DNA of 64,000 nt from a virus: IMG/VR virus record IMGVR_UViG_3300043313_000346, positions 1 to 64,000 of that record, one strand, 5' to 3'. Below the pieces are notes generated by a model. It had not been told where the DNA came from, did no database searches, and saw nothing but the letters and a program-made list of their open reading frames with translations. Shown here in pieces: positions 20,949 to 36,335 of the stretch; positions within the stretch are counted from its first letter, which is position 1, and every line of letters begins with the position of its first letter. The position numbers were made by a program, and so were the translations under genes.

Positions 20949-21123
20949 AGCATCATGGACGATCTGCCCGGGCTGCGGACGCGGTCGCGGCGAGGATCAC
21001 AAGCGCGACTGCGAGCATGGCAAGCCGCCGCCGATCCGCGACTATAGCAAGCTCGAAAACAATCGCGGGCCAGAGACAATGCGCGGCGTGCCGGTGCCGC
21101 TGCAGCCGGTGACGGAGGAATAG
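20941..21123 (+). CDS. Hypothetical small zinc-binding protein
   Basis: CPGC..H..C; GGAG RBS. Confidence 0.55.
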   Translation: MAKASWTICPGCGRGRGEDHKRDCEHGKPPPIRDYSKLENNRGPETMRGVPVPLQPVTEE

Positions 21124-21127
21124 CCCG

Positions 21128-22074: not shown

Positions 22075-22259
22075 TGAAGCATGCTTCGAACCGAAACGCT
22101 TGGGCGATCGGCACGCAGAAGCGCAACGGCTTCCATGTGCGTCGTGTCGTGTGGGGCATGCTCATGGCTAGCGTCGAGCGCCGGCCGGACGAAGAAATCC
22201 GCAAGGCCGTTATCATCGTCTCTGGAAAACGCTCGCGACCGATCAAGGTATTCGAATGA
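22071..22259 (+). CDS. Hypothetical protein
   Basis: Coupled ORF. Confidence 0.5.
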   Translation: MMKHASNRNAWAIGTQKRNGFHVRRVVWGMLMASVERRPDEEIRKAVIIVSGKRSRPIKVFE

Positions 22260-22468
22260 TCGAGACCCTCGCCGTCATCGAATACGAGCACACGCTTGGG
22301 CACGTCACCGCCGGCATCGTGCTGTTCGACGACGTCGTCGTCGAGGCGGCGCCGATCGTGAACTACATGAAGCGCGGCAAGTGGACACGCGCGCGCGTGC
22401 GGGCATACTGCGCCGACAAGGGATGGAAGATTAGCGTGGTTCACCAACTCGAACGGGAGAGACCGTGA
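22256..22468 (+). CDS. Hypothetical protein
   Basis: ATGA overlap. Confidence 0.6.
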   Translation: MIETLAVIEYEHTLGHVTAGIVLFDDVVVEAAPIVNYMKRGKWTRARVRAYCADKGWKISVVHQLERERP

Positions 22469-22496
22469 TGCCGAGCGACCGCGACGGAGGAACAAG

Positions 22497-22739
22497 ATGA
22501 GCACCAGAGCCACGAATTTCGTGTCTTGGCTTCTTGAGGACGTTGACAGCGTTCACGCCGAGGCAGGCACCCCGCGTGATGAGCAGTTGCGCGAGTTCGA
22601 GCGCGACGGGTTTCTCCGGTTCTCGGGCTGCACACGCGGAACGAACAATTACGAAATCGTCACGGGCGGCTTCCGCGCATTTTGGGAAGCAGCCGCCGTA
22701 CACGGCCGCGCGCCACACATGGACGAGGAGCGAAAATGA
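22497..22739 (+). CDS. Hypothetical protein
   Basis: GGAGG RBS. Confidence 0.55.
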   Translation: MSTRATNFVSWLLEDVDSVHAEAGTPRDEQLREFERDGFLRFSGCTRGTNNYEIVTGGFRAFWEAAAVHGRAPHMDEERK

Positions 22740-22972
22740 TGAAGCCGAACGGAGAGGAGTTGCGCGCCTTCGATGACGCCGGGATGCCCGCCTCATGGTC
22801 GGCGGGACGGCCAACTGTCGAAATTGTCCGCAACGTTATTCAAGCAGCATGTGATGGCGTTATGAGCGCGCAATCGGCCGCAGAGGTGATGTTCTCTCTG
22901 TTCCGCCGAGAGATTGAGGCGCCCGAAATGTGCTGGCACACGAACGCCGCGCGCATGGACGAACAGCGATGA
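22736..22972 (+). CDS. Hypothetical protein
   Basis: ATGA overlap. Confidence 0.55.
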   Translation: MMKPNGEELRAFDDAGMPASWSAGRPTVEIVRNVIQAACDGVMSAQSAAEVMFSLFRREIEAPEMCWHTNAARMDEQR

Positions 22973-22999
22973 CCGGGCAACGAACGGGAGAGACCATAA

Positions 23000-23266
23000 A
23001 TGCCGAGCTTGGACTTCAACCTCAACGGCGATAATTGCTGGCCCGATCTTCGCGAGAAGGAAGTGATCGAGTTGATGGGCGACGGTGCGCCACCGATCGG
23101 CGTCGCGCTGCTCGACAACGGCATGACCAGCGGCAGGCCGAGCATCACGCTGCGCCTCGATCTTCCCGATGGCCGCGTCGTGATGACCGAGACCAGCGCG
23201 CGGCTGTTCTGCACCGCTGCGCGCATGATCATGGCGAAGCATCCCGATCTGTTCGAGGGAGACTGA
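23000..23266 (+). CDS. Hypothetical protein
   Basis: GGAG RBS. Confidence 0.65.
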   Translation: MPSLDFNLNGDNCWPDLREKEVIELMGDGAPPIGVALLDNGMTSGRPSITLRLDLPDGRVVMTETSARLFCTAARMIMAKHPDLFEGD

Positions 23267-23267
23267 C

Positions 23268-23549
23268 ATGCACACGAAAGATTTTCTCGCGCAGGAATTA
23301 CAGAAGGCCGGGCTCGACGAAATGGCTGCCAAGGCGGCTGATGGGTACTATCACGATTTCCTCTCGCCGCTCGACACACCGGAGCTTCAGCTATTGGCAG
23401 ACTTGCGCGCGATCGGCACGCCGGCAGCCGAAGCGCTCGCGGCTCGCCATCTCACCGGCGAGTTCGATGCGAGCAAGGAAGAGAGCGACGCATGGGCGCA
23501 GAGTCCCGAAGGACAGGACGCATTCGGCAAGCTGATGAGGGGCTCATGA
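23268..23549 (+). CDS. Hypothetical protein
   Basis: GGAG RBS. Confidence 0.65.
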   Translation: MHTKDFLAQELQKAGLDEMAAKAADGYYHDFLSPLDTPELQLLADLRAIGTPAAEALAARHLTGEFDASKEESDAWAQSPEGQDAFGKLMRGS

Positions 23550-23782
23550 TCTTCACCGGCAAAGTGACAGGTCTGGCCGAAGGCTCGACGTTCATTGTCC
23601 GGCGCTACTTTGACGGACGCCGCGACGGCTATCAGCACGGCTGGAGTCAAACAGGCTACCGTGTGACGCGTCGCTTGACGGACAGTGTCGAAGCCGAAAC
23701 CACGGTGATCGGCATGGGCGACGCGAGCCTGCCTATCTTTCAGGTCGTGGGTCCGGATCACAGCCGGCTGGCGCCGTGGTGA
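23546..23782 (+). CDS. Hypothetical protein
   Basis: ATGA overlap. Confidence 0.5.
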   Translation: MIFTGKVTGLAEGSTFIVRRYFDGRRDGYQHGWSQTGYRVTRRLTDSVEAETTVIGMGDASLPIFQVVGPDHSRLAPW

Positions 23783-23961
23783 TCAGAACCGGCGCCGACT
23801 GGCTCAAGCTGCCGCTCAAATTGCGACAACGCTGGTGGCGTGAGACGGACTACGGTAAACGCGAGCCGAGCGACGATCTGAAAAACGAGATCGAGAAAAT
23901 CCTTTCAGCGGTTGGGGCAATCCATGAAGCTGACCAAGCGCCAAAGCGAACTGGTGTGTGA
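23776..23961 (+). CDS. Hypothetical protein
   Basis: Coupled ORF. Confidence 0.5.
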   Translation: MVIRTGADWLKLPLKLRQRWWRETDYGKREPSDDLKNEIEKILSAVGAIHEADQAPKRTGV

Positions 23962-24184
23962 ACTGTCGAAGGGGCTGTCGAACAAGGCGATAGCGCGCAA
24001 CCTCAATGTCACCGAAGGCACGGTGAAAATGATGCTGCATCTTCTCTACGCCAAAACCGGCACCGCCAACCGCACCGCGCTCGTGATGCAGTGTGCGCTT
24101 GCCGAGTCCGGGAAAGCAGCCGAGCAAATCATTGCACTATCACCGGGCCAAGCAGCAACGGCCCCGGCTCGACTTGACCCGTAG
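23924..24184 (+). CDS. LuxR-type HTH regulator
   Basis: LTKRQSELV..GLSNKAIARNLNVTEGTVK..LYAKTG..NRT. Confidence 0.85.
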   Translation: MKLTKRQSELVCELSKGLSNKAIARNLNVTEGTVKMMLHLLYAKTGTANRTALVMQCALAESGKAAEQIIALSPGQAATAPARLDP

Positions 24185-24365
24185 CTTCGTAGCGCTGCAG
24201 CGCGGCGAACGTGGCGGCCGATGTTGCGAAGCGGATGAACTTCGTTTCCAGTTCGATCAGGGTGAAGTGCTCGAACAGATGCACGTCGATCACGTCACCC
24301 GGGAACGTGCGCTTGATTGACTCTTCGATCGGCTCGCAGCGATAGCGCTTCCCATACTCCGTCAT
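24129..24365 (-). CDS. Hypothetical protein (single reversed gene)
   Basis: GGAG RBS on the minus strand; operator-like boxes upstream. Confidence 0.5.
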   Translation of the reverse strand: MTEYGKRYRCEPIEESIKRTFPGDVIDVHLFEHFTLIELETKFIRFATSAATFAALQRYEATGQVEPGPLLLGPVIVQ

Positions 24366-24396
24366 GGCATGCTGACTCCGGTTGATGGCGCGATGC

Positions 24397-24437
24397 TGTC
24401 ACATGGTGTCGCAAGGCTATTATCACAAAATGTTACA
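24397..24437. promoter_or_regulatory. Two operator-like boxes
   Basis: TGTCACA-TGG-TGTCGCA and TATCACA-AAA-TGTTACA. Confidence 0.6.
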
Positions 24438-24669
24438 TCGGTGCCATACGGCTTTCTTGAATCGCACTCGCTCAAAACCGTTCAAGATGTCCAGCATCCA
24501 TCGCACCTAATGATTTTTTTCTGCGCGAGTTGTCGCTGTGCCACGCGGAGTCGCGTCGGCAAAAACGATCCGATTCCGAAAAGTTGAAAAGTCGATTTGC
24601 TATATTGCTCGTGTCGCAGTCAGAGAGCGACGGGCTGTTTGAAATGCAAAATCTGAAATGGAGACGAAC

Positions 24670-24930
24670 ATGGCGCAAGCCATCGACACGACGAACTATG
24701 TCTACCTTGCAATGACCGCGAACTTTTGGGCGTCCTCGAAAACGAGCGAGGAAGCTGCGGTGCGATCTCTTCGGGCTCAAGCCGGATCGTCACAGGTCAC
24801 GAAGTATGGATGGGTCACCTATCACATCCATCCTGACTTCGAGGTCTGCGGGATCAACGGCGACGTGATGACGCCGATCGGTCACAAGGCGATCAAGCTC
24901 ACCGACAAGATCAAACGCAAGGCGGCATAA
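24670..24930 (+). CDS. Hypothetical protein
   Basis: AAATGGAGA RBS; TGCTATATT extended -10-like element upstream. Confidence 0.65.
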   Translation: MAQAIDTTNYVYLAMTANFWASSKTSEEAAVRSLRAQAGSSQVTKYGWVTYHIHPDFEVCGINGDVMTPIGHKAIKLTDKIKRKAA

Positions 24931-24999
24931 AGCAAAGAGCCCGGGACGTGGACGCGTCCCGGGCCCCTCACTCGCAACGCAAGTACATGGAGACCTAAC

Positions 25000-25500
25000 A
25001 TGCAGACCATACCACTACGCGAACGACGCCACCAGCAAGCGCTCAAGGATCGCGCCCGGCTGGAGCGACAACGCGACGACACGCTCGACAAGCTCAGCCG
25101 CATCGCCGCCAAGCTCAAGGCGGTGCGCCGATCGGTCGAGCGCTACGAGCGAACGCCGATGCACCCGGTGAAGCCTGAGCCTCTCGCGGTGACGATCTTC
25201 CGCGAGATGGCAAAGGACGCGCCCGCTGCATCGGTGAACGTCGAGCCGCCGGCGCCGACACCAGCGCCGCAAGCAGCCGCGCCAGTGCCCGCGCCGGCGA
25301 GCGTCGACGATGACATGCCGGACTTCCTTCGGCGCTCGAAGCCCGATGCCGTCGGTGAAGCGATCGCCGCTGAGCAGGAAGCGAGGCGCAAGGCCAAGGC
25401 GCACGGGCGCATCGCGACGCTGAAGGCCAAGAAAAGCGGCGCCACCAAGCAGATGCCGCTCGAAGGCAAGGCCGCGCTCGCCGCGATCCGGGGCGGATAA
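25000..25500 (+). CDS. Hypothetical protein
   Basis: ATGGAGA RBS; coiled coil, Pro/Ala linker and DMPDFLRR motif. Confidence 0.7.
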   Translation: MQTIPLRERRHQQALKDRARLERQRDDTLDKLSRIAAKLKAVRRSVERYERTPMHPVKPEPLAVTIFREMAKDAPAASVNVEPPAPTPAPQAAAPVPAPASVDDDMPDFLRRSKPDAVGEAIAAEQEARRKAKAHGRIATLKAKKSGATKQMPLEGKAALAAIRGG

Positions 25501-25520
25501 AAAACCCGCGCTACCCCAGC

Positions 25521-25549
25521 AAAGCCGCCCTTCGGGGCGGCTTTTTCTT
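25521..25549 (+). terminator. Rho-independent terminator
   Basis: AAAGCCGCCC-TTCG-GGGCGGCTTTTT hairpin with U-tract. Confidence 0.85.
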
Positions 25550-25597
25550 GTGTGTTTTCAGCCGCTTGCCAAAGGCAAAAAAGATGTGGCTGGCCTC

Positions 25598-25626
25598 TTG
25601 TGTCACATCATGTGACATGCCATATA
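25598..25626 (+). promoter_or_regulatory. Sigma70-like promoter overlapped by a perfect operator palindrome
   Basis: TTGTGT-N17-CATATA, with TGTCACA-TCA-TGTGACA (25601-25617) overlapping the -35 box and spacer. Confidence 0.65.
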
Positions 25627-25629
25627 CGT

Positions 25630-26018
25630 CTCTCGTTACTTGATTGGTTGCTCCCCTGCGGTGCCTTCGGGCGCTCACTTGACGAGGGGGGTCCGGCACC
25701 AGACCCGGTTGATTGATGAGCATCGCTCTCACAGCCGCACCGCTCCCCTCAGAAGGATCGGCTCAGTCACTGCCCGGGGTACCAGTAAAATGGCCACACC
25801 AATTTCACTGCAGAACATGCGGACGCAACGCGTCGCGCGAACACTGCAGCCACCTCCCCGACGAATAGCGGCGCGCACGCACGATGCGCGCACGGTGCGA
25901 GGACAGACGACGCAATGGTCAAGAGCGCGAGGGCGCGGCCATGACGAAGACGACACGGTCAAGAGCACGAGGGTGCGACCCTGTTGATGCTGACACTGCG
26001 CGGCGCCACGCGCCGCAG
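25630..26018 (+). ncRNA. Candidate long structured leader RNA
   Basis: About 390 nt without a convincing ORF; multiple hairpins, including two tandem covarying hairpins at 25917-25940 and 25957-25980. Confidence 0.4.
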
Positions 26019-26114
26019 TGACCACTGAAGAGCGGCGACCAGACGAAGGCGCGCCGCTTCACAGTGTTCATGCACTCGCGCCTCGCAACGGCGCGCCAAC
26101 AAATGGAGAATGCA
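26019..26114 (+). repeat. Structured intergenic cassette element, copy A
   Basis: TGACCACTG..GAGCGGCG..CGCCGCTTC-ACAGTGTTCATGCACT-GCGCC-TCGCAAC-GGCGC..AAATGGAGA. Confidence 0.85.
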
Positions 26115-27140
26115 ATGACTGCTCTTCTGAACGAAGTTGAATGCACGATCGCGGAAGCGGCTGTGCTGCTCGAAAGGCAACTTGCCAAGGGCAAGCCCGT
26201 GATGATGTGGGGCGCGCCCGGGCTCGGCAAGTCGGCGATCGTCTGGCAGCTTGGCGCCAAGCAGGGCCGCAAGGTGATCGAGTATCGCGCCAACCTGCGC
26301 GAGCCGGTCGACGTGCGCGGCATCCCGGTGCCCGATCTGGTGAGCGGCACGACACGCTGGCTTGTGCCGGAAGACCTGCCGAACGCCGAGCGCGACGGCG
26401 AGTTCGGTTACCTGTTCCTCGACGAGATCAACACGGCGTCGCCGCAGATGATGGCGGTGCTGTTCGGTCTCGTGCTCGATCGGCGCATCGGTGACTACGT
26501 GCTGCCGGCTGGCTGGCAGATCATCGCTGCCGGCAACCGCGTGAGCGATCGCGCGGCGGCTCAACGGATGCCGACGGCGCTGCGCAACCGCTTCTCGCAT
26601 CTGACCGTACTGCCCGACGTCAACGCGTGGGCGGTGTGGGCGAACGCGAACGGTGTGGCGCCTGAGATGGTGGCGTTCGTCCGCTTGCGGCGCGAACTGA
26701 TCCACCGGATGCCGCGCGGCGATGAGAACGCATTCCCGACGCCGCGCTCGCTGACGGCGGCTGCGGAGTTCGTTGACGAGCCGAGCATCGCGCTGCGGCA
26801 AAAGCTGTTCGCCATGCACGTCGGCAATGACGTCGCCGGCGAGTTGAACGGCTTCATCGAGCTTTATCAATCGCTCGGTTCGCTCGACGACATCGTCGCC
26901 GATCCTGCCAATGCGAAGGTGCCCACCGAACCTTCGCAACTCTACGCGGTCTGCACCGGGCTCGCGCGTCTCGCGACGCGAAAGAACTGGTCGCAGATCG
27001 TGACCTATGCCGAGCGGCTGCGCGGCGAGCATCAAGTTCTGCTCGTGCATGACGCCGTGATGCGTGACCCGAAGCTGAAAGAGACGTCGGCCTATTCCAA
27101 GTGGGCCGTCGCCAATCAGGGCGCGCTGATGCAATCGTGA
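26115..27140 (+). CDS. MoxR-like AAA+ ATPase
   Basis: Walker A GAPGLGKS, Walker B LFLDEIN, AAGNR and ALRNRF. Confidence 0.9.
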   Translation: MTALLNEVECTIAEAAVLLERQLAKGKPVMMWGAPGLGKSAIVWQLGAKQGRKVIEYRANLREPVDVRGIPVPDLVSGTTRWLVPEDLPNAERDGEFGYLFLDEINTASPQMMAVLFGLVLDRRIGDYVLPAGWQIIAAGNRVSDRAAAQRMPTALRNRFSHLTVLPDVNAWAVWANANGVAPEMVAFVRLRRELIHRMPRGDENAFPTPRSLTAAAEFVDEPSIALRQKLFAMHVGNDVAGELNGFIELYQSLGSLDDIVADPANAKVPTEPSQLYAVCTGLARLATRKNWSQIVTYAERLRGEHQVLLVHDAVMRDPKLKETSAYSKWAVANQGALMQS

Positions 27141-27230
27141 GCAGTAAGGGCGGCGCCGTGTGCGCCGCCCCATAGTGCCCATGCACTGCGCCGTCGCAAC
27201 CGGCGCCAACCTTTCAAATGGAGATTCCCA
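27138..27230 (+). repeat. Structured intergenic cassette element, copy B
   Basis: Starts at the upstream TGA. GGGCGGCG..CGCCGCCC; AGTGC-CCAT-GCACT; GCGCCG-TCGCAAC-CGGCGC; AAATGGAGA. Confidence 0.85.
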
Positions 27231-28127
27231 ATGAACGCGAAAACGAAAGTGATCGCCTCGCCGCTGTCGCGGAAGGCAACGCTGGTGTCGGTCGACATCA
27301 GCCAATGGACGGCACGCAAGCTCGACAAGCGGGTGACGGACAAGGTCAACCGCGAGCACAACGCGGCCGACGACGCCGGCCGCTATCACAAGCTGCTGAT
27401 CGAGGCCAAGCGGCTCGAAGCGATCAACTCGCTGGTCGCGCAGGCACGCCGGCTGCACTACACGATGACGAAGCCGTGGGCCGACGAAGGCTTGCGCATC
27501 CTGCCGAACAAGCTGCACGAAAAGTTCGCCAGCGAGTTTCGCAAATTGAAGCGCGAGTTCGACGTGGCTGCTGATGACTTCTGCCGCGAATATCCGACGT
27601 TCATTGCCGAGCGCAAGAAAGCTCTCAACGGCTTGTTCAACGCGTCGGACTATCCGCCGGCCGATGAGATCAGGAGCAAGTTCCGGCTGACGACGAAGAC
27701 GTTCCCACTGCCTGAGTCGGATGACTTTCGCTCGGACGTGCTCGACGCGGACACGGTCGAAGACATCAAGCGCGAGCTTGCCGAGACGAACGAAGCGGTG
27801 CTTGCCGATGCGATGAAGCACACGGCCAAGCAGATCACCGAAGTCGTCGGGCACATGGCCGAGAAGCTGAAGGCGTACAAAAAGCCGGGCAAAGGTTCGC
27901 GCAGCTTTTTCTCGCACACGCTGGTCGAGAACGTGCGGCAGCTTGCCGAGCTTCTGCCGGCCTTCAATCTCGACAACGATCCGGCGCTCGACGCGATCGC
28001 CGATCGCATCAACAAAGAACTTTGCGTCGAAGACGCAGAGACACTGAGACACGACGACAACGCGAGGAAGTCGGTGGCCAAGAGCGCCGACGACATCCTG
28101 CGCGATGTCGAAAGCCTGCTCGGCTGA
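27231..28127 (+). CDS. DUF3150-like protein
   Basis: LVSVDISQWTARKLD and DYPPADEIRSKF; lies between the AAA and vWA genes. Confidence 0.65.
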   Translation: MNAKTKVIASPLSRKATLVSVDISQWTARKLDKRVTDKVNREHNAADDAGRYHKLLIEAKRLEAINSLVAQARRLHYTMTKPWADEGLRILPNKLHEKFASEFRKLKREFDVAADDFCREYPTFIAERKKALNGLFNASDYPPADEIRSKFRLTTKTFPLPESDDFRSDVLDADTVEDIKRELAETNEAVLADAMKHTAKQITEVVGHMAEKLKAYKKPGKGSRSFFSHTLVENVRQLAELLPAFNLDNDPALDAIADRINKELCVEDAETLRHDDNARKSVAKSADDILRDVESLLG

Positions 28128-28174
28128 GAGCGCGCCCGGCCGCAACCCGGGCGCTTTTCAAAATGGAGATGACA
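28125..28174 (+). repeat. Structured intergenic cassette element, copy C (last hairpin and RBS only)
   Basis: GCGCCCGG-CCGCAAC-CCGGGCGC..AAATGGAGA. Confidence 0.8.
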
Positions 28175-29614
28175 ATGCAGACGATCGACACGGTGACGGC
28201 ACAAGCCGCCGAGCGCGTGAGCAAGGCGCGCCAAGAACTGATCCTTGAGCGCACGTTCTACGGCGTGCTGGTCAGCCAAGTCGAGGCCAAGCCGTCGCGC
28301 GACTTCCCGACGATGGCGACGAACGGCCGGACGCACTTTTTCAATCCGGACTTCATCGCCTCTCTGTCGCAGGTCGAAGTGCTCGGCGTGCAGGCGCACG
28401 AGACCGAGCACGATGCGCGCCGCCATCACACGCGGCGCGGTAACCGCGATCCGCAAGAATGGAACGTGTGCTGCGATCTCGCGATCAACCCTGACCTGAT
28501 CCGCGCGGGCTTCAAGCTGCCGGAAGGCGCCCTGCTCGACTGGCGCTTCGAGGGCATGTCAGCCGAAGACATCTATCGGACGCGCGAGCTTGAGCGGCAG
28601 CCGCCGCAACAGCCGCAGCCCGAATCGGACAAATCGGACAAAGCGGACAAAGCGGACAAATCGGACAAATCGGACAAATCGGACGGAACCGATGGAACCG
28701 ACGGCGACGATGCCGACGGCGACGAAGGCGCTGGCGAGGGCGCTGGTGAAGCCGGCGAAGAGCCGGGCGACACTGGCACCGGCGAAGGCGCCGGCGACGC
28801 TGGCGAGCCCGGTGAGGGCACCGGCGAGGGCTCTGGCGAGGGCGAAGGCTCGGACGCTGGCAGCGATGCCGGCGAGGCCAAGCCGGGGCCGTCTTCGGGC
28901 GATCCCGGCCGCTGCGGCGAAGTGCTCGACGCGGCGGTTGATGCCGCCGAGCGGGCCGACGTCGACGCCAAATGGGAACGTGTCGTGCGCGAGGCCGCAA
29001 GCCTCGCACGCAAGCGCGGCGACGCTCCCGGGCACGTGTCGCGCGAGATCGAGCGGAACGATCATCCCCCGCAAGACTGGCGCGAGACTTTGCGTGCCTT
29101 TTTCGACGGCGGCGCGGTGACCACCGAAACGTGGTCGCGTCCGAACCGGCGCTTCATCGGCGGCGGGCTCTATCTGCCCGGCCGCGAGCGTGACGGCGTC
29201 AACCGCGTCGCCATGCTGGTCGACACGTCCGGTTCGATGGATGATGTCGCGCTTGCGGCGATCGGCGTCGAAGTGCAAGCGGCGCTCGATGAGAACATCA
29301 TCGACGAGCTTGTCGTGATCTACGGCGACACGCGGGTGACGCGCGTCGACACGTATCGCGGCGGCGACGAGATCGAGTTCGATCCGCGTGGCGGTGGCGG
29401 CACCCGGTTGATGCCGCTGTTCGATCACGTGGCGAACGAAGTCGATGCTTCGCTGATCGTGTGCTTCACCGACGGTGAGCACGAGATCACCAGCGCGCAC
29501 GCTGAGCCGGCTTGCCCGGTCCTGTTTGCGATCACCGGCTTCCCGCAGGACGTTCGCCACTACGTCGCGAATGCACCGTGGGGCGCCACCGCGATCGACG
29601 TCGGATCGCACTGA
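28175..29614 (+). CDS. DUF2201-like metallopeptidase + vWA domain protein
   Basis: TMATNG, HETEH (HExxH), WNVCCDLAIN, acidic Gly-rich linker, DTSGSM MIDAS motif, GGGGT and FTDG. Confidence 0.88.
   Translation: MQTIDTVTAQAAERVSKARQELILERTFYGVLVSQVEAKPSRDFPTMATNGRTHFFNPDFIASLSQVEVLGVQAHETEHDARRHHTRRGNRDPQEWNVCCDLAINPDLIRAGFKLPEGALLDWRFEGMSAEDIYRTRELERQPPQQPQPESDKSDKADKADKSDKSDKSDGTDGTDGDDADGDEGAGEGAGEAGEEPGDTGTGEGAGDAGEPGEGTGEGSGEGEGSDAGSDAGEAKPGPSSGDPGRCGEVLDAAVDAAERADVDAKWERVVREAASLARKRGDAPGHVSREIERNDHPPQDWRETLRAFFDGGAVTTETWSRPNRRFIGGGLYLPGRERDGVNRVAMLVDTSGSMDDVALAAIGVEVQAALDENIIDELVVIYGDTRVTRVDTYRGGDEIEFDPRGGGGTRLMPLFDHVANEVDASLIVCFTDGEHEITSAHAEPACPVLFAITGFPQDVRHYVANAPWGATAIDVGSH
28625..28685 (+). 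repeat. 9-bp in-frame tandem repeat (T/G)CGGACAAA
   Basis: About 6.5 copies, encoding SDK/ADK. Confidence 0.85.
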
Positions 29615-29705
29615 CCACTGCAGGGCGGCGTCGCAAGGCGCCGCCTCACAGTGTTCATGACGAACACCCGGCCCGCAACGCCGGATCACAAATGGAGTAA
29701 TGACA
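29612..29705 (+). repeat. Structured intergenic cassette element, copy D
   Basis: TGACCACTG-CA-GGGCGGCG..CGCCGCCT-CACAGTGTTC-ATGAC-GAACAC-CCGGC-CCGCAAC-GCCGG..AAATGGAG. Confidence 0.88.
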
Positions 29706-30104
29706 ATGAAAAAGCTTGGTGGAGTTCTGATCATCATCGTCGGCCTGATCTGGCTGAGCAACGGCAAGCCCGCCGACACGACGCCGGCATCGCCGTGCAA
29801 ATCCGATTGGACAAAATGCACCGACAACGCCGACATGGCGAACAACTTCGGCGGCTGGTCCGGCGTGCAATATGACTGCAAAAAACAGGCGGAAGAACTC
29901 GCCAAATACGGCACGCCAGAATGGCCGTGGTTCGCCTTCTCATCCTTCCGCCCCGGCAGCAACTACAGCACCGGCACCGTCACGGTGATCGAGCCCGATG
30001 CCAAATTCCAGAACGGCTTCGGCGCGATGGTGCGCTCGCGCGTGGTCTGTGAATACGATCTGCGCAGCAAGAAGGTGACCAACGTCGACATCAGCGCGCG
30101 ATGA
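29706..30104 (+). CDS. Exported/membrane-anchored Cys-containing protein
   Basis: MKK plus hydrophobic N-terminus; four Cys; QNGFGAMVR motif. Confidence 0.75.
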   Translation: MKKLGGVLIIIVGLIWLSNGKPADTTPASPCKSDWTKCTDNADMANNFGGWSGVQYDCKKQAEELAKYGTPEWPWFAFSSFRPGSNYSTGTVTVIEPDAKFQNGFGAMVRSRVVCEYDLRSKKVTNVDISAR

Positions 30105-30193
30105 GCACCACCGAGCGGCGCTTCGGCGCCGTTCCATAGTGCCCACGACGGACACTGCCGGCGCAACCGGCGCATCAAATGGAGACTTTCAAA
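30102..30193 (+). repeat. Structured intergenic cassette element, copy E
   Basis: Starts at TGA. GAGCGGCGC-TTCG-GCGCCGTTC; AGTGCCC..GGACACT; GCCGG-CGCAA-CCGGC; AAATGGAGA. Confidence 0.85.
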
Positions 30194-30403
30194 ATGGCGA
30201 ATCTCTACACCTACGAATGCCGCGCTTGCGGCTTCGCTCAAGTCTTCCGCGAAGACAACAGCATGCATTGCCCGCACTGCCGCGCGTGGCCGATGCGCGA
30301 GGCGCTGCCGAGCGTCGACGCGATGCTCGCGACGATCGACACCGTGATCGGCTGCGATGATACCGAGATGGCCGACAAGGCAACCCGGAGGGCAGCACGA
30401 TGA
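30194..30403 (+). CDS. Zinc-ribbon protein
   Basis: YTYECRACG...CPHC. Confidence 0.7.
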   Translation: MANLYTYECRACGFAQVFREDNSMHCPHCRAWPMREALPSVDAMLATIDTVIGCDDTEMADKATRRAAR

Positions 30404-30567
30404 GCCGGAAGACCGAAAGCAAGAAGGCCGCGCGCGTGCTGCGCGAAGTCTTCGACGCCAAGCTGCCAGTGCCCGGCGTGACCACGCGTGATCGCGACGC
30501 GGCGCTGTGGCTGGCGATCACGATCCTTGAAGCCCGCGCGCAAGATGCAGACAGTGAGGAAGGATAA
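30400..30567 (+). CDS. Hypothetical protein (55 aa)
   Basis: GGAGG RBS and ATGA overlap. Confidence 0.55.
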   Translation: MSRKTESKKAARVLREVFDAKLPVPGVTTRDRDAALWLAITILEARAQDADSEEG

Positions 30568-30570
30568 AAA

Positions 30571-30987
30571 ATGAAACATCTGACCAAGGCACAGGTAGCA
30601 ACGCGCGACGAACTGATCGCCGCGCTGCGCGGGAAAGACAAGGCGATCGATGATGCCATCATCGAGATCAACAACAAGATCGACGAAGTCAACGTGCTGA
30701 TCGAAGAGAACCTCAAGCCCGCGATCGACGACTACAACGGTGCGCTCGGCGATCTCGAAGAACTGCGCAATGAGATCGTCGGCCAGATGGACGACTATGT
30801 TAACGCGCGCTCTGAGAAGTGGAGCAACAGCGATGCCGGCGCGAACTATTCGTCGTGGAAGGACGAATGGGAAGGCATCGACATGAGCCCGCTCGACGAC
30901 ATCGAGCCGCTTGCACATCTCGAAGCATCGGACCCGGCACACGCCAACGAGTTCGAAGCGCTGTCGAGCGAGGTTCAAGAAGACTGA
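30571..30987 (+). CDS. Acidic helical protein
   Basis: D/E-rich; RSEKWSNSDAG motif. Confidence 0.7.
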   Translation: MKHLTKAQVATRDELIAALRGKDKAIDDAIIEINNKIDEVNVLIEENLKPAIDDYNGALGDLEELRNEIVGQMDDYVNARSEKWSNSDAGANYSSWKDEWEGIDMSPLDDIEPLAHLEASDPAHANEFEALSSEVQED

Positions 30988-31086
30988 GTGCTGCCAGAGC
31001 GGCGCGGGACAACTCGCGCCGCTTCACAGTGTTCATGCTGAGCACTCCCGCCGCAACGCGGGCAAAAATCCAAATGGAGAAAAACG
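30985..31086 (+). repeat. Structured intergenic cassette element, copy F
   Basis: Starts at TGA. GAGCGGCGCG..CGCGCCGCTT; AGTGTTC-ATGCT-GAGCACT; CCCGC-CGCAAC-GCGGG; AAATGGAGA. Confidence 0.88.
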
Positions 31087-31434
31087 ATGAAGTATCTACT
31101 GCCTCTTGCCGTCGCGCTTGCAATGACATCCGGCGCGAATGCCGGCTACACCGCCGGCGAGCTATTGAAGGAATGCAAGGCCGACTCGAAGAAAGCGGCT
31201 TGCGCGACCTATGTGACGGCTACATGGGATACATTCGAGGCACTGGCTTGGACTCATAAAGAGCTTGTCATTGCCAACATCTGCATCCCGCACGGCATCA
31301 CGGTCGTGCCGGCCGAGATGATCAAGCTCGCTGAAACGCGGATTCAGGAACAGAAGGCGACGCCGGATATGTCCGCTGCGGCGGTGCTGCTTGCTGGCCT
31401 GCGATCCAAGTTCAATTGTTTCGATCGACGCTGA
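31087..31434 (+). CDS. Rap1a/Tai-family immunity-like exported protein
   Basis: Signal peptide, then TAGELLKEC..CATYV..ICIP..AAAVLLAGLRSKFNC four-Cys pattern typical of Rap1a. Confidence 0.7.
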   Translation: MKYLLPLAVALAMTSGANAGYTAGELLKECKADSKKAACATYVTATWDTFEALAWTHKELVIANICIPHGITVVPAEMIKLAETRIQEQKATPDMSAAAVLLAGLRSKFNCFDRR

Positions 31435-31510
31435 TCACTGCAGAGCGGTGCCAAATCTGGCGCCGCTTTTCATGCCGGTCGCAACCCGGCTCAACAAATG
31501 GAGAACTGAA
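31432..31510 (+). repeat. Structured intergenic cassette element, copy G (middle hairpin missing)
   Basis: TGATCACTGCAGAGCGGTGCC..GGCGCCGCTT; GCCGG-TCGCAAC-CCGGC; AAATGGAGA. Confidence 0.85.
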
Positions 31511-32164
31511 ATGAAGACGCTGAAATGCGTCGCGCTCGCTGCCGCACTGCTCGCCAGTGCTTCGAGCGCGCACGCTGCAATGAAGGCCTACCAGACATCC
31601 GGCCTTTGGTCCGCGAATGCCGGCACGGCCAACGACGGCACGCCGATGTGCTCGATGAGCATCCAAGACAAGGAACGCGCGGCCTTCATCAAGTGGCAGG
31701 CGGGAAGCGAAAATCTGTTCGTGCAGGTTTATAAGTCAAGCTGGAATATCCCGATCGGCACAACGATGCCGATGACGATCCAGTTTGATCGCGCCGAGCC
31801 GTTCAAGGGGACCGCGACATCGATTCCCGGTGGCAACGGGCAGATGATCGAAGTGTCTCTCAAAAACGAGGAAGGCAGCACGATCCCCCGGTCGTTCATG
31901 GAGGAATTCGCATCGGCGGTGAAGATGTACTTCATCTTTCCCGGCGGCAACGAAACGCTATGGTCCGCACCGATGGAAGGCTCGCGCATCATCGCCGGAT
32001 CGTTTGCGAAATGCGTGATCGACTATTCCAAATATGCGACGCCCAAGACGCAGCCGCACAAGGGCGGTGGCGGCGGCGGGGCGACGCAGCCGCACAACAG
32101 CACCCCGGCTGAGCCGGTGGCGCCACCACCACTGAGCGGCAGCGCCAAACGCAACGACATCTAA
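31511..32164 (+). CDS. Exported protein
   Basis: Sec signal peptide ending AHA; beta-rich domain with two Cys; Pro/Gly-rich tail. Confidence 0.75.
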   Translation: MKTLKCVALAAALLASASSAHAAMKAYQTSGLWSANAGTANDGTPMCSMSIQDKERAAFIKWQAGSENLFVQVYKSSWNIPIGTTMPMTIQFDRAEPFKGTATSIPGGNGQMIEVSLKNEEGSTIPRSFMEEFASAVKMYFIFPGGNETLWSAPMEGSRIIAGSFAKCVIDYSKYATPKTQPHKGGGGGGATQPHNSTPAEPVAPPPLSGSAKRNDI

Positions 32165-32167
32165 AGG

Positions 32168-32267
32168 TGACCACTGCAGAGCGGCGTGCCACAAGCGCGC
32201 CGCTCGACAGTGTTCATGCGAACACTCGCCCGCCGCAACCGGGCGCAAAAAAATGGAGAACCTTACA
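32168..32267 (+). repeat. Structured intergenic cassette element, copy H
   Basis: TGACCACTGCAGAGCGGCG..CGCCGCTC-GACAGTGTTC-ATGC-GAACACT-CGCCCG-CCGCAAC-CGGGCG..AAATGGAGA. Confidence 0.88.
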
Positions 32268-32498
32268 ATGACGATAAAGTCCCTCATCCTGACGGCGGCG
32301 CTCTTGCTCGCCGGCCCGCACATGCTGCGCGCCGATGACGCCAAGGGCGCGGCCGATGACGCATCCCGCGAATGGAGTCCGATCGAGGTTGTCTACTTCT
32401 GCAATCTTCCTCTGGCCGAAGCCAAGATCGAGAACTGCACGGCAGCGCAGCCGAAGCGACAGCGACAAGCGCGCTTGCGCAAGAAGGTGATCCGATGA
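32268..32498 (+). CDS. Small exported protein
   Basis: Signal-peptide-like N-terminus and two Cys. Confidence 0.6.
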   Translation: MTIKSLILTAALLLAGPHMLRADDAKGAADDASREWSPIEVVYFCNLPLAEAKIENCTAAQPKRQRQARLRKKVIR

Positions 32499-32905
32499 AA
32501 CCCACCAAGCGCGAATGCGGCGGCTGCACGCTGTGCTGCAAGTTGTTGGCTGTGCCGGCGATCGAGAAGCCGCAAGACAAGTGGTGCAAGCACTGCACCA
32601 TCGGTGTCGGCTGCGCGATCAACGGCAGCGAGCAGCGACCAGAGGCTTGCGGCCTGTTCGATTGCCTCTGGCTGCAAGGCTACGGCGACGACAACATGCG
32701 GCCCGACAAATCGAAGGTCGTCATGGGCATGACGTCGGACGGCAAAAGCCTCGTGCTCTATGTCGATCCGTCGCGGCCGGAAGCGTTCCGCGAACCGGCG
32801 ATCGACAAGACGATCGACAAGCTGATCGCGAACGGCATGAAGGTGTTCGTCGTATGCGGCGACAAGCGCCGGATGATCTCAAACCAAAATGGAGAACCGA
32901 CATGA
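32495..32905 (+). CDS. CxxCxxCC (YkgJ-like) cysteine-cluster protein
   Basis: CGGCTLCCK..C..C..C..RPEAC..C. Confidence 0.78.
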   Translation: MKPTKRECGGCTLCCKLLAVPAIEKPQDKWCKHCTIGVGCAINGSEQRPEACGLFDCLWLQGYGDDNMRPDKSKVVMGMTSDGKSLVLYVDPSRPEAFREPAIDKTIDKLIANGMKVFVVCGDKRRMISNQNGEPT

Positions 32906-33147
32906 CGAACGAAGAGAAAGACCTGCTGCGCCGAATCGCAACGGTGCTGCAACAGCCGCGCAATCGCTTCGGCTGCATTCAAGGCGGGGCGTCGCACGCG
33001 CGCGACGCTGCGCCGGCTGATCTGGTGAAGCGCCTGCCGCACGGCGGCGTCGACGCTGCTGATCAGTGCGCCATGCTCCTGCAGTCGCTGATCGGCGATC
33101 CGGTGATGTCGATCGGCGACATGGGCAACATGAGGACTCGGGCATGA
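32902..33147 (+). CDS. Hypothetical protein
   Basis: AAAATGGAGA RBS and ATGA overlap. Confidence 0.6.
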   Translation: MTNEEKDLLRRIATVLQQPRNRFGCIQGGASHARDAAPADLVKRLPHGGVDAADQCAMLLQSLIGDPVMSIGDMGNMRTRA

Positions 33148-33803
33148 CCGACATTTGGCCCGTGATCCATCTCTCAACCGTCGACAAGCTCACGGTCGAG
33201 AACGCCAGCATGGCCGCGCGCTGCGGCTGTCCCGGCGTGTTTCTCATCTCGATGAGCGGCTACGACGACGCGGTCGATCCTGCGGCGGCGCTGATCCGGC
33301 GCGAAGTGCCGGGGCTCAAGATCGGCATCAACCTGCTGACCAAGTCGCCATCGTGGGCGGTGTGCCACAGCATGAACCAAGGCTATGACGCGACATGGTC
33401 CGACTTTGCGTGGCAGGGCACCGGCGTTGATGCCTACATCGAGAAGGCCGGCGTCGATCACAAGTTCTTCGCCGCCGTCGCGTTCAAGGGCGAGACGCAC
33501 AACGAGCCGGACCCGCACGCGAGCGCGCGCGAGGCCGTGGCGCGCGGATTTATTCCGATGACGAGCGGCAGCGGCACCGGCGTCACCGCGCCGTTCGAGA
33601 AGATCGAGCGGCTGCGCAAGGCGATCGGTCCCGCCGCGCCTCTCGCGATGAGCGGCGTGCATCCACCGCACGCCGATCGGTTGGTGCCGCTGGTGACGCA
33701 CTTCCTCGTCGCCACGTGCATCAGCCGGGACTTCTACACGTTCGATGAAGCGATGCTGCAATACTTGATCGGCAAGACTGCCGGCGCTTCTGTTGTTGCC
33801 TGA
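33144..33803 (+). CDS. BtpA/SgcQ-like TIM-barrel protein
   Basis: PVIH, GVFLI, IGINLL, VAFK and TSGSGTG motifs. Confidence 0.6.
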   Translation: MTDIWPVIHLSTVDKLTVENASMAARCGCPGVFLISMSGYDDAVDPAAALIRREVPGLKIGINLLTKSPSWAVCHSMNQGYDATWSDFAWQGTGVDAYIEKAGVDHKFFAAVAFKGETHNEPDPHASAREAVARGFIPMTSGSGTGVTAPFEKIERLRKAIGPAAPLAMSGVHPPHADRLVPLVTHFLVATCISRDFYTFDEAMLQYLIGKTAGASVVA

Positions 33804-33810
33804 ATCAAAA

Positions 33811-33846
33811 TCCCCGGCCGAGCTTCACGCTCGACCGGGGACTCTT
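33811..33846 (+). terminator. Hairpin, probable terminator
   Basis: TCCCCGGCCGAGC-TTCAC-GCTCGACCGGGGA, with only a weak U-tract. Confidence 0.5.
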
Positions 33847-34023
33847 GCTCGTGCGATCGCAACTTCGGCAACGAGCCTCGCGATCGGACCAAATGGAGAA
33901 AGCCCCGATTCGCGAGTGGGTGTCATTTAAGCGCACTTGGAACTTTTTTCAACTTTTGGCCGCTTCGAAGGCACGTGCGGTCTTCATCGCTTTTGCTTCA
34001 ATAGCTTGGGGCTGGAAGCATCA

Positions 34024-34040
34024 TGTAACAAGTTGTGACA
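34024..34040. promoter_or_regulatory. Operator-like box
   Basis: TGTAACA-AGT-TGTGACA upstream of the first XRE gene. Confidence 0.6.
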
Positions 34041-34108
34041 AATTTTTGCGAACGCCCAACGGAGGTTAGAATTTCGACAGGCAAAAAATACAGTTTCCCA
34101 AGGCGGCT

Positions 34109-34333
34109 ATGCGAAGACGAACGGCTCAATTTGTTAGACTCGCGCGCGCTAAGCTCAAGATGACACAAGCAGAATTTGCGAAACGGCTTGGGCTCGAACG
34201 TCGCAGCATCTTGCGATACGAGAAGGGCGAACCGTTGCCACCGACGGTGTACTTCGCGATCAAATTTCTGGTCGCGCGTGACAGGCTCAACAAGCAACGA
34301 GCCAAAGAGCGGATCAACAAAAGAGCCAATTAA
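34109..34333 (+). CDS. XRE-family HTH regulator (paralog 1)
   Basis: RAKLKMTQAEFAKRLGLERRSILRYEKG. Confidence 0.85.
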   Translation: MRRRTAQFVRLARAKLKMTQAEFAKRLGLERRSILRYEKGEPLPPTVYFAIKFLVARDRLNKQRAKERINKRAN

Positions 34334-34508
34334 AGCGCTCTGCCCTCCCCTTCTCTAGCTTCCTTCCCCTCCCCAAAGCTGTGCAAGAACTTGCACACCT
34401 TCAAAGGTGTTGCGGTGCGACCTTGCGCACTCACGCGGCTTAGTGACATCTTATGACTCGCAAATGCCGGGAGCCCCCGGAAAAATACCTGCGATGAAAA
34501 GAGGCGAG

Positions 34509-34769
34509 ATGACTACGACGGACTTCGCTACCGACACGATGACTCCAATGAAGAGCACTGCAGGCTTCGTGAAGCGTGCGCGTGCGAAGCTCCAGATGAC
34601 TCAGGGTGAATTCGCTGAGCGTCTCGGGCTCGAACGCCGCACCATCATAAGATACGAGAAAGGCGAGCCTCTGCCTCCGACGGTTTACTTCGCAATCAAG
34701 CATCTGGTCTCACGTCATAAGCTCAACAAGCAAAGAGCCAAAGACCGAGCGACCGCCAAGGAAGACTAA
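34509..34769 (+). CDS. XRE-family HTH regulator (paralog 2)
   Basis: RAKLQMTQGEFAERLGLERRTIIRYEKG, highly similar to paralog 1. The start is uncertain. Confidence 0.85.
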   Translation: MTTTDFATDTMTPMKSTAGFVKRARAKLQMTQGEFAERLGLERRTIIRYEKGEPLPPTVYFAIKHLVSRHKLNKQRAKDRATAKED

Positions 34770-34861
34770 CGCGCCTGATTTTTCGTTCACCTAACCGCCC
34801 GTGCTTCACCGCTTGAAGCGCGACGCGGGACAACGCTGTCTCAGAGAGGACAAAAGCCATT

Positions 34862-35338
34862 ATGCCGAAACCCTTCTTGATCGGAATCGAAGTCGAGGAA
34901 GTCGCGCTCGGGCTGGTGATGCGCAAGCTCAACAGCCTGCCCGGCGTCGTCAAGCTGCACATGGACTTGGACCTGATAGGACCGAAGGCGAAGTCGAACG
35001 GCGCGGACCCGCACGGCAAGCGACGCGGGCGCCCGCCGGGCCGCCCGCACCGAACCTTCGACATGACCGGAGAGCAGGCAATCATCGCCATGCTGAAGGG
35101 CAAGACGATGTCGATCGGCGAGATGAAGGATGTGTTCGCGGCACAAGGCCGCGCGCCGGGCTCGGTCAACTCGTGCCTGTTCAAAGTTCAGAAGCAAGGC
35201 GCGGTTGTTCGCACGGCCCCGAACACTTACGCGCTGGCGAAGTCGAAGAGCAAGCCGAAGCCGAAGACGAAGGCGAAGAACAAGCCCAAGCCGAAGACAC
35301 CGAAGACGAAGCCCACGACAGCACCAGAGGGAGCGTAA
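34862..35338 (+). CDS. Basic DNA-binding-like protein
   Basis: RRGRPPGRP AT-hook-like motif, winged-helix-like segment and K/P-rich tail. Confidence 0.65.
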   Translation: MPKPFLIGIEVEEVALGLVMRKLNSLPGVVKLHMDLDLIGPKAKSNGADPHGKRRGRPPGRPHRTFDMTGEQAIIAMLKGKTMSIGEMKDVFAAQGRAPGSVNSCLFKVQKQGAVVRTAPNTYALAKSKSKPKPKTKAKNKPKPKTPKTKPTTAPEGA

Positions 35339-35341
35339 CCT

Positions 35342-35722
35342 ATGGCCCGCGTGCATCTGTATCGGACCTATCGATGGATCGACAAAGACCCGATCATAGG
35401 GGCGGTGAAGACGATCGTGCAGGATGAGAAGCTGAAGAACAACGCGGTCCACGAAATCACGGGGATCGCGACAGCCACGCTCGACGGATGGTTCAACGGC
35501 GGCACGCGCAAGCCGCAGAACGTCACGGTGACAGCGGTTGCGTCGGGGCTCGGCTACGTGCGGCGCGATCGATTGTTGCCCGATGGCACGGTCGAGGTTG
35601 GCTTCGAGAAGGCACGCAAGCTCGACTGGAAAGAGGAAGCCGAGAAACAGACGAAGTTCATGCTGAAGTATAACCCGAAGAAAAAGCGCAAGGCGAAGCG
35701 CAAGAAAAATGGTGCCGGGTGA
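35342..35722 (+). CDS. HTH-like basic protein
   Basis: VHEITGIATATLDGWFNGGTRKPQ resembles an XRE HTH. Confidence 0.65.
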   Translation: MARVHLYRTYRWIDKDPIIGAVKTIVQDEKLKNNAVHEITGIATATLDGWFNGGTRKPQNVTVTAVASGLGYVRRDRLLPDGTVEVGFEKARKLDWKEEAEKQTKFMLKYNPKKKRKAKRKKNGAG

Positions 35723-36078
35723 TGAGCGATACAGACATGGGACGAACACCAATGACCGATGGCGACATGAAGCGTCTGCTCGATTACGTGGCGTTCGTCC
35801 CGATCCCGGTGACGGTGAAGGCGAACGACTACGCCTATGACGGCTGGCTGATCGGCGGCGGCGAGAAGCGTCACGGCGAGTTTCGGGTGATGGTCGAGGA
35901 CAGCTTCGGCCGCATCTACATCCACAACTGCGGTCAGGTCCGCGTGCGCGACGAGGCCGAGCCGCGCTCGCGCGAGATCGTCATGCGCGACGTGATCGCG
36001 CTGCTGCCGAACGACCGCGAGGCCGGGCTGGCGGTTCTCGATCTGGCGCGACGCATGGTGGAGAGGTTCAAGCGATGA
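35719..36078 (+). CDS. Hypothetical protein
   Basis: Coupled ORF. Confidence 0.6.
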   Translation: MMSDTDMGRTPMTDGDMKRLLDYVAFVPIPVTVKANDYAYDGWLIGGGEKRHGEFRVMVEDSFGRIYIHNCGQVRVRDEAEPRSREIVMRDVIALLPNDREAGLAVLDLARRMVERFKR

Positions 36079-36335
36079 GCGATACAGACACGAAGCATCT
36101 CGACTGGATCGCCGTGCCCTTGCTGGTCGCCGGCCAGCCGCGATCGTGGGGCGCCGGCGTGTGGCCGTGGACGTTCGCCGTCACCTTCAACGGCACCACC
36201 TACGCGGCGAGCGCTAACGACAGCCGGGCGCGCGGGACCGGGCACACCAAGCTCGGCGCCGATTTCACGACGCTGGAGTCGGCCCAGAAGGCGTGCGCGG
36301 CGTTTCTCCGCGAGCAGAAGGACGCGCGGTCATGA
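36075..36335 (+). CDS. Hypothetical protein
   Basis: ATGA overlap. Confidence 0.6.
   Translation: MSDTDTKHLDWIAVPLLVAGQPRSWGAGVWPWTFAVTFNGTTYAASANDSRARGTGHTKLGADFTTLESAQKACAAFLREQKDARS

Follow-up and report, generated by a model that had tools for sequence, protein, structure and literature searches.

Structured elements between stop and start codons in the cassette-like MoxR ATPase–DUF3150–VWA operon of a temperate phage and its relatives

In the early region of phage T7, the RNase III sites R0.3, R0.5, R1, R1.1, and R1.3 are a recurring set of similar, internally looped hairpins that span about two helical turns and lie between cistrons; the upstream message probably retains one of them as a protective hairpin. 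Enterobacterial repetitive extragenic palindromic sequences and bacterial interspersed mosaic elements (REP/BIME) are GC-rich imperfect palindromes in the intergenic spaces of operons, often only a few bases from a stop codon, where they stabilize the upstream mRNA; REPs occur in hundreds of copies, in both orientations and chromosome-wide, and are tied to RAYT transposases. In T4-type phages, promoter early stem-loops (PeSLs), which combine a sigma-70-like promoter with an effective terminator, are small repeated units flanking nonessential genes in plastic regions; insertions, deletions, and replacements between close relatives are found at these units, for which inter-unit recombination was proposed as the cause (PMC2839356, PMC4122927). 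Cluster K mycobacteriophages carry start-associated sequences (SAS), a conserved motif containing a Shine-Dalgarno (SD) sequence just upstream of many start codons, often with an extended SAS (ESAS) on its 5' side, an imperfect inverted repeat with a variable spacer that occurs in one orientation and for which the authors found little support for mRNA hairpins (PMC3203893). SAS has been defined as the 13-nt consensus GGGATAGGAGCCC located 3 to 8 nt before start codons, and its function is still open (PMC12699233). Here, we describe a structured element of about 100 nt that recurs eight times within one operon of the IMG/VR virus record IMGVR_UViG_3300043313_000346.

The analyzed window comprises the first 64 kb of this 76,884-bp record, which is rated complete by CheckV and has a G+C content of about 63%. 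An earlier note on the window had listed eight copies of the element, and all eight positions were confirmed (copies A to H, Table 1). The short motif CGCAAC-N(4-20)-AAATGGAG has 8 matches in the window, where 0.01 is expected from shuffled sequences; all of them are on the + strand, which is the gene strand, and the motif is absent from the remaining 12.9 kb of the record. The eight copies can be aligned over about 100 nt with a mutual likeness of 75 to 90%. A covariance model (see below) gives forward scores of 74 to 92 bits, whereas echoes on the reverse strand of the window do not exceed 29 bits, and the predicted folds are more stable than those of shuffled sequences, with z-scores ranging from -1.9 to -5.0 across the copies. 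The reduction of copy C to its last hairpin and SD sequence and the lack of the middle hairpin in copy G, both as the note had described, were borne out by alignment and folding. We can state that the element family is uncatalogued, real, and well supported, and that its link with stop codons is unusual and conserved.

Three hairpins, referred to as P1, P2, and P3, make up the element. In all full copies, P1 is a two-storey hairpin consisting of a lower helix of 3 + 5 bp, an internal loop of 2 to 4 nt, and an upper helix of 9 to 12 bp. The earlier note had recognized P1 as the GAGCGGCG/CGCCGCTY stem; this hairpin is present, but its extent was understated because TGAnCACTR pairs with YAGTGYYCA below that stem, and the lower helix formed in this way contains the upstream stop codon. 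P2 is a short alternative hairpin in which the 3' strand of the P1 lower helix (S2) is re-paired with the next segment (S3, GRACACT), the P1 lower helix and P2 being mutually exclusive. Only a few bases 3' of P2 lies P3, a small GC hairpin whose loop contains YGCAA and which leads into an A/C-rich spacer of 4 to 22 nt. Every unit ends with GGAG, and the ATG, which had been predicted to come shortly after the ribosome-binding site, indeed starts 6 to 9 nt further on. The distance from GTGYYCA to CGCAAC is 13 to 17 nt and that from CGCAAC to AAATGGAG is 9 to 15 nt. The free RNA is predicted to fold as the long P1; when the first 18 nt are blocked, thereby mimicking a terminating ribosome, the upper part of P1 together with P2 is predicted in most copies and is weak in a few.

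The P3 loop falls into two classes, YCGCAAC in the clade of the window and CUUGCA(A/G/U) in a more distant clade, which share the core YGCAA. In YCGCAAC and CUUGCAA, the GCA lies in different registers of the 7-nt loop, and mimicry of an anticodon loop by P3 was rejected on this ground. Masking of the SD sequence by S3, the 3' strand of P2, was also discarded, as at most 3 to 4 bp would be possible and the pairing is absent from every fold. Two variations of the start-proximal part were observed among relatives, which are denoted here by L numbers. In L132, L145, L147, L148, L153, and L154, the start-associated block GGAGTCAC replaces AAATGGAG and is followed by 2 to 4 nt and the ATG. In L129, a perfect 6-bp palindrome (GGAAAT GGAG ATTTCC) encloses the SD sequence in its loop in at least five copies, including those at 8850-8875, 9970-9997, 12930-12955, and 13565-13592, a feature that the copies of the window do not have.

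Relatives were fetched from IMG/VR with the DUF3150 protein of the operon at 57 to 100% identity, and the covariance model was built on 21 copies. With this model, at least 55 distinct copies were retrieved from over 15 related contigs of viral or metagenome origin, all of them within the MoxR ATPase–DUF3150–VWA operon. Five whole phage records hold 8, about 9, about 6, about 4, and 4 copies, respectively, in this operon only and on the gene strand only. Model matches are also present in L144/145, L147/148, L149 to L151, L153, L154, L155, L156, and several metagenome contigs; no copy was found by the model in L152 or L158 to L160, whose DUF3150 proteins are 41 to 60% identical. The gaps inspected in L152 and L159, which have no copy, and in L149 and L156, which have only weak copies, contain a plain single GC hairpin and an SD sequence; the DUF3150 proteins of these four relatives are 41 to 63% identical. 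The presence of this plain arrangement in the same gaps of distant relatives suggests that the unit with three hairpins developed from an ordinary hairpin between cistrons. A short form like copy C also occurs in L129 and L133, where it has a longer T-run.

When IMG/VR and the species-genome collection were scanned with specific patterns, nothing was found outside this clade. Among 185,579 species genomes (one genome for each species), the pattern scan gave L134 as its single match, which had no covariance-model match at E<=0.001; the pattern spans the 3' arm of P1 to the P3 loop, and a relative consisting of P1 only in a host genome would escape it. The short motif alone gives scattered single matches in viral contigs, which are probably due to chance. 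Rfam 15 had no match in the whole window at gathering scores, and at E<=1 the region 25500-32600 gave only weak matches on the terminator at 25521-25544 and two chance matches inside genes. No likeness of the element to tRNA or tmRNA was found.

The claim that the elements form a real structured family, one unlike any described element, was supported by the covariation of P1, P2, and P3 and by the lack of an Rfam match. The counts given for the three hairpins refer to 55 distinct copies unless another number is stated, and kinship among these copies means that they overstate the number of independent events. P1 is paired at 94%, with both-side changes in 16 of its 17 pairs, a level reached by none of 500 shuffles, and pairing drops to 32 to 54% when the partner strand is slid. 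P2 is paired at 95% and six of its seven pairs covary; as P2 lies outside the model, the alignment was not fitted to it. In a plain MAFFT alignment of 21 copies, the pairing picture of P1 and P2 is unchanged. For P3, 38 different 5' arms were counted, nearly all parsed as perfectly complementary stems, which agrees with the earlier observation in the window that these stems vary between copies yet always pair; the loop reads YGCAA in most copies and retains at least GCA in nearly all. The lowest helix of P1 covaries through the stop codon itself (TGA/TCA, TAA/TTA, and GACC/GGTT). Despite the kinship of the copies, the variety of pair types makes a chance origin of the covariation unlikely. This helix conservation spans phages whose DUF3150 proteins are 57 to 70% identical.

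The coupling to the upstream stop codon was evident in the window, where the TGA of copies B to G is the stop of the upstream open reading frame (ORF), as the note had proposed, the six ORFs ending at 27140, 28127, 29614, 30104, 30987, and 31434. Copy H is preceded by a TAA stop 4 nt upstream. Of the distinct copies, 48 are preceded by a long frame; in 36 of these, the stop codon is the element's own TGA, exactly 4 nt ahead of CACT, and in all 48 it falls within -10 to +3; an in-frame stop is expected by chance in one of three cases. For the TGA of copy A, no ORF conserved in the relatives ends there and there is no conserved leader ORF, and a leader peptide ending on this TGA was rejected for that reason. 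From this arrangement, it appears that genes have come to end on a TGA triplet that is structural to the element.

Table 1. Positions of the element copies, the genes of the array operon, and the control region in the window
Feature	Position	Strand	Description
Intrinsic terminator, strong	25521..25544	+	10-bp GC stem, 4-nt loop, T-run; also conserved in L129 and L133; marks the end of the previous transcription unit
Candidate promoter of the array operon	25597..25627	+	CTTGTG ... CATATA with 17-bp operator palindrome 25601-25617 between; read from sequence
Structured leader	25806..26020	+	Element-like degenerate piece, tandem repeat, P1-like hairpin; no DNA-level conservation in L129/L133
Copy A	26019..26117	+	Full (P1, P2, P3, SD, ATG); in the 5' untranslated region, heads the MoxR-type ATPase gene; covariance model 82.9 bits
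AAA_5/MoxR-like ATPase, core gene 1	26115..27140	+	Pfam PF07728, phrog_1297, E 5e-82
Copy B	27138..27233	+	Full; TGA is the ATPase stop codon; covariance model 74 bits
DUF3150 protein, core gene 2	27231..28127	+	Pfam PF11348; query used to retrieve relatives
Copy C	28125..28177	+	P3 and SD only; 8-bp P3 then UUUU, terminator-like
DUF2201_N metallopeptidase-like and VWA protein, core gene 3	28175..29614	+	Pfam PF13203, PF09967; phrog_1314
Copy D	29612..29708	+	Full; covariance model 76.1 bits
Cargo gene, 132 aa	29706..30104	+	Hydrophobic N-terminus; phrog_13160 sole match
Copy E	30102..30196	+	Full; covariance model 78.7 bits
Three coupled cargo genes (69-aa zinc ribbon, 55 aa, 138 aa)	30194..30987	+	No element between; starts overlap or abut preceding stops
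Copy F	30985..31089	+	Full; one-cassette indel site relative to L128; covariance model 80.9 bits
Cargo gene, 115 aa	31087..31434	+	Exported, Rap1a-like (type VI immunity protein); Pfam PF18602 27.3 bits, cut-off 27.7
Copy G	31432..31513	+	P1 then UUUU, then P3; no P2; covariance model 33.4 bits
Cargo gene, 217 aa	31511..32164	+	Signal-peptide-like N-terminus; no family match
Copy H	32168..32270	+	Full; top score, 91.7 bits (covariance model); fold z = -5.0; upstream stop TAA 32162-32164
Last element-headed cargo gene, 76 aa	32268..32498	+	Signal-peptide-like; no element after

The element-headed genes show clear cassette-like evolution. The suggestion that the array is modular, with gene content changing at the element boundaries, found support both in an indel relative to L128 and in the ends of homology with L129 and L133. 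Sequence identity between the window and L128 is 95 to 97%, and the two are colinear except at copy F, where L128 has one extra 78-aa gene and one extra element in the place of the single copy. Homology with L129 and L133 starts inside copy A (26050), and it ends at copy D, for L129 at the first base (29614) and for L133 at the last base (29708), as determined with blastn. In total, the element-headed genes fall into 24 families, 14 of which are singletons and only three of which, the core families, are widely shared; the cargo downstream of the three core genes differs by lineage. The indel at copy F lacks a sharp shared crossover point, which is more readily explained by homologous exchange between diverged repeats than by cutting at a specific site. 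Logan contigs from four sequencing runs break at the repeats and show no clean joint at any element; the sole contig joint (30162 to 31143 in X20) is compatible with an L128-type arrangement, the shorter side of this joint being only 30 letters. A likeness of 75 to 90% over about 100 nt implies that the copies also serve as homology patches, and the RecE/RecT pair of the phage could recombine them and thereby account for the cassette-like gain and loss of genes.

Regarding function, the elements most likely act in the mRNA of one putatively repressor-controlled operon. Action in the mRNA is favored because the copies are on the coding strand exactly between stop and start codons, because each copy contains the SD sequence of the next gene, and because conservation extends to both of two alternative helices, something for which a double-stranded DNA site would have no need. 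We give about an even chance to a model in which the element is an RNA punctuation mark that senses upstream translation and sets the message ends as well as downstream initiation, with recombination between copies as a side effect. A ribosome terminating at the embedded stop codon would open the lower helix of P1, and the freed 3' strand could then form the alternative hairpin P2. P1 may cap and protect the upstream cistron, or, when untranslated, may be cut by an RNase III-type enzyme. P3, the A/C-rich spacer, and GGAG would constitute a portable initiation module for the next gene, in which P3 would provide the downstream message with its 5' end and a landing site, probably with a bound factor. 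The sequence comparisons show the structure and its covariation, the placement relative to the stop codon, the confinement to one operon, and the mosaic boundaries; that the element works at the RNA level, that the message is cut or protected there, that translation of the upstream gene is sensed, and that a factor binds the P3 loop are inferences from them. A bolder version, which we regard as tentative and rather doubtful, holds that the element is a ribosome-sensing two-state adaptor: the flip from P1 to P1-upper plus P2 would decide whether the downstream cistron is cut, protected, or translated, and the unit would carry all that is needed for expression and let phages plug in foreign genes singly, making it an undescribed general class of phage gene-cassette punctuation.

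Several observations weigh against action as RNA punctuation. The reverse complement folds slightly better than the + strand (mean of -43.1 versus -40.0 kcal/mol), and G.U pairs outnumber A.C mismatches only by 56 to 27 in P1 and 13 to 12 in P2, a weak excess with which a single-stranded-DNA hairpin is still compatible. Moreover, hardly any variation is seen in the CGGC/GCCG at the center of P1 or in the AGTG on its 3' strand, which suggests sequence-specific recognition beyond structure, and no candidate binding protein co-occurs with the element within 8 to 10 kb. The TGA is also retained in the first copies, in the 5' untranslated region, where no conserved ORF ends; its conservation must thus be partly structural, the triplet being part of the structure. 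Finally, the predicted accessibility of the SD sequence is no higher than at neighboring element-free control genes. A simple insulator that keeps the SD sequence open is unsupported, given this ordinary accessibility, and a trans-acting factor could not be singled out by neighborhood co-occurrence, as only the three core genes are common to all element-bearing loci.

The near-invariant parts of the element are given the leading role when the array is read as a set of protein-binding RNA operators, in which one phage or host protein would bind the YGCAA loop of P3, and perhaps the CGGC/GCCG stem of P1, and coregulate all cistrons, either by repressing translation in the manner of T4 RegA or by antitermination of the boxB/N type. 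This reading overlaps with RNA punctuation but makes factor binding primary. It would explain why the loop is retained across 38 different P3 stems and why P3 lies 4 to 22 nt upstream of the SD sequence, and the U-run behind P3 of copy C, like that behind the equivalent hairpins of L129 and L133, makes for a terminator-like structure whose effect could be overcome by a factor bound to the loop. P3 is similar in size to lambda boxB, with a loop of 5 to 7 nt containing GCAA. However, the copies share no boxA-like partner block, no N-like protein was identified, lambdoid nut sites number two per genome and are not placed before every gene, and the compared neighborhoods hold no co-occurring candidate protein; the shift in GCA register between the two loop classes likewise counts against this reading. 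We consider the operator array unlikely. Transcription rather than translation would be punctuated if each unit were a moron-type or PeSL-like boundary at which P1 terminates and a promoter between the 3' strand of P1 and P3 restarts transcription, so that cassettes would be units of their own and expression from the prophage would be possible. The cargo does resemble lysogenic-conversion genes (small exported proteins and a Rap1a-like immunity protein), UUUU tails follow P1 of copy G and P3 of copy C, and indels occur at the units, as is the case with PeSLs (PMC2839356). Yet a sigma-70-type consensus scan, which does not cover other promoter types or hosts, found four promoter-like sites in 20000-38000 and none in any copy, which leaves an identity with PeSLs unsupported; in addition, no P1 was called as a terminator, the spacing between the conserved blocks is too variable for a promoter of two hexamers, and covariation of the P3 stem would be unexpected of a promoter element. 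Such a boundary appears quite unlikely. An N4-type hairpin promoter was dropped, because the largest ORF of the record does not exceed 955 aa and no giant virion RNA polymerase is thus encoded.

The confinement of the element to one small phage clade could also mark it as a nonfunctional or selfish palindrome related to REPs or miniature inverted-repeat transposable elements, which would have spread harmlessly in the operon next to an ordinary SD sequence, with the cassette pattern arising passively; indeed, many REP copies are GC-rich imperfect palindromes right after stop codons. This is very unlikely in view of the single orientation, the exact stop-to-start placement within one operon, the compensatory changes that keep three helices intact between phages with DUF3150 proteins 57 to 70% identical, the stop codon in register in 36 of 48 copies, and the species-genome scan, in which no copy was confirmed with the pattern used. 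Least of all do we expect a site-specific recombination site of an integron-like system, which would fold in single-stranded DNA and be cut by the tyrosine recombinase of the phage. A co-directional array of unrelated genes with hairpin spacers and lineage-specific cargo would be in line with it, either DNA strand can fold by thermodynamics, and a tyrosine integrase gene is present at 17661-18770. The terminal R''/R' motifs of attC sites, the inverse core and core RYYYAAC ... GTTRRRY, which pair with one another, are absent, however: the ends of the element read TGAnCACTR and YAGTGYYCA, and the GCAAC in the P3 loop has no complementary GTTGC downstream. The integrase gene, which encodes the only recombinase of this kind, lies 8 kb upstream with other genes between, matches only the generic Phage_integrase domain in Pfam, and reaches no integron-integrase model above its cut-off (best NCBIfam match 19.8 bits against a cut-off of 220). 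Furthermore, the elements head genes, including the first, and none follows the last gene; each carries the functional SD sequence of the next gene; and the copy-F indel has no sharp shared crossover. The integron-like mechanism raised in the earlier note is thereby disfavored by the lack of both attC core motifs and an integron-type integrase.

The operon is preceded by a control region of its own. A perfect 8+1+8 palindrome (TGTCACAT c ATGTGACA) occupies the spacer of the candidate promoter and is likely a repressor operator controlling the array operon. The block 25597-25627 is conserved in L129 and L133, and the leader 3' of it is not; the sigma-70 consensus scan did not call this block as a promoter. 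Before copy A, the leader of about 390 nt (25628-26018) is highly structured and poorly conserved: it contains a degenerate element-like piece at 25806-25849 (CACTGCAG ... GACGCAACGCGTC ... GAACACTGCAG), a tandem repeat of 2 x 40 nt at 25906-25985, and a compact P1-like hairpin at 25994-26020 that overlaps the TGA of copy A.

The trio of MoxR-type ATPase, DUF3150 protein, and DUF2201-VWA protein is present in every relative, and homologs of the ATPase with about 30% identity are found mostly in phages of about 75 kb, including Acinetobacter, Pseudomonas, and Vibrio phages. In the VWA gene, positions 28600-28900 encode a low-complexity acidic run (SDK repeats, then rich in G/E/A/D), whose length varies between soil populations, as contigs of other runs show omissions of 5 and 27 bases and an addition of 9 bases. 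The cargo proteins (29706-32498) are small and have mostly signal-peptide-like or membrane N-termini, which suggests functions in lysogenic conversion or self-protection.

The uncultured phage is temperate and, as a tape-measure protein is encoded, long-tailed. Its record also encodes a primase/helicase, tail-fiber genes, and, at 8961-11248, the RecE-like and RecT-like proteins mentioned above. At least 60% of sampled words of the phage stretch are present in 20 DNA sequencing runs from 12 studies, nearly all of soil, and no RNA run containing the stretch was listed. No prophage was found with DUF3150 protein alignment in a search of one genome per species, and a near-identity DNA search of the phage collection gave no near-identical relatives. 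Outside the operon, the 170-bp stretches 34142-34311 and 34578-34747 cross-match each other's L128 counterparts in blastn with about 79% likeness, which indicates a local duplication around the helix-turn-helix gene region.

If the element acts as proposed, it would represent a new structured cis-regulatory RNA family that has no counterpart in Rfam, is known from at least 55 distinct copies, and covaries in three helices. It may let temperate phages take up or swap accessory genes within an operon while expression stays undisturbed; in this operon, such genes mostly code for exported proteins that may alter the surface of the lysogen or protect it. With its stop codon strictly placed at the base of a hairpin and an alternative fold that covaries, the element also bears on the role of post-stop hairpins in bacterial operons, and the unit could possibly be used as a natural insulator part for synthetic operons.

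Compared with the systems introduced at the outset, the closest published layout is that of SAS/ESAS. The SAS consensus is nevertheless absent from the element, whose conserved block is AAATGGAG (8 of 8 copies) or, in the more distant clade, GGAGTCAC; furthermore, the three helices of the element covary, and SAS is spread over much of the genome whereas the element is restricted to one operon. P1 resembles the T7 RNase III sites in being an irregular, internally looped hairpin of about 20 bp placed between the cistrons of an operon. The element as a whole, however, consists of three hairpins that allow an alternative fold, incorporates the stop codon, and brings its own SD sequence; its sequence is unrelated to those of the T7 sites. 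PeSLs are resembled in that the indel between the window and L128 at copy F and the homology ends at 26050, 29614, and 29708 all fall at elements. PeSLs, however, lack the anchoring to a stop codon, and a U-run is missing after seven of the eight P1 hairpins, none of which was called terminator-like. Like REP/BIME, the element is a GC-rich imperfect palindrome near a stop codon between operon genes; in contrast to them, it occurs in a single orientation and a single operon, was found in phages only (five records and the genome scan), and includes the SD sequence of the next gene. With integrons, it has in common the hairpin spacers in a co-directional, largely promoterless array of unrelated genes, but attC sites follow the cassette ORFs in an array that starts with attI, whereas the element precedes the genes, with copy A in the 5' untranslated region, and carries a ribosome-binding site. 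The general kind, intercistronic punctuation hairpins in phage operons, is thus known, and the architecture described here is a new variant of it.

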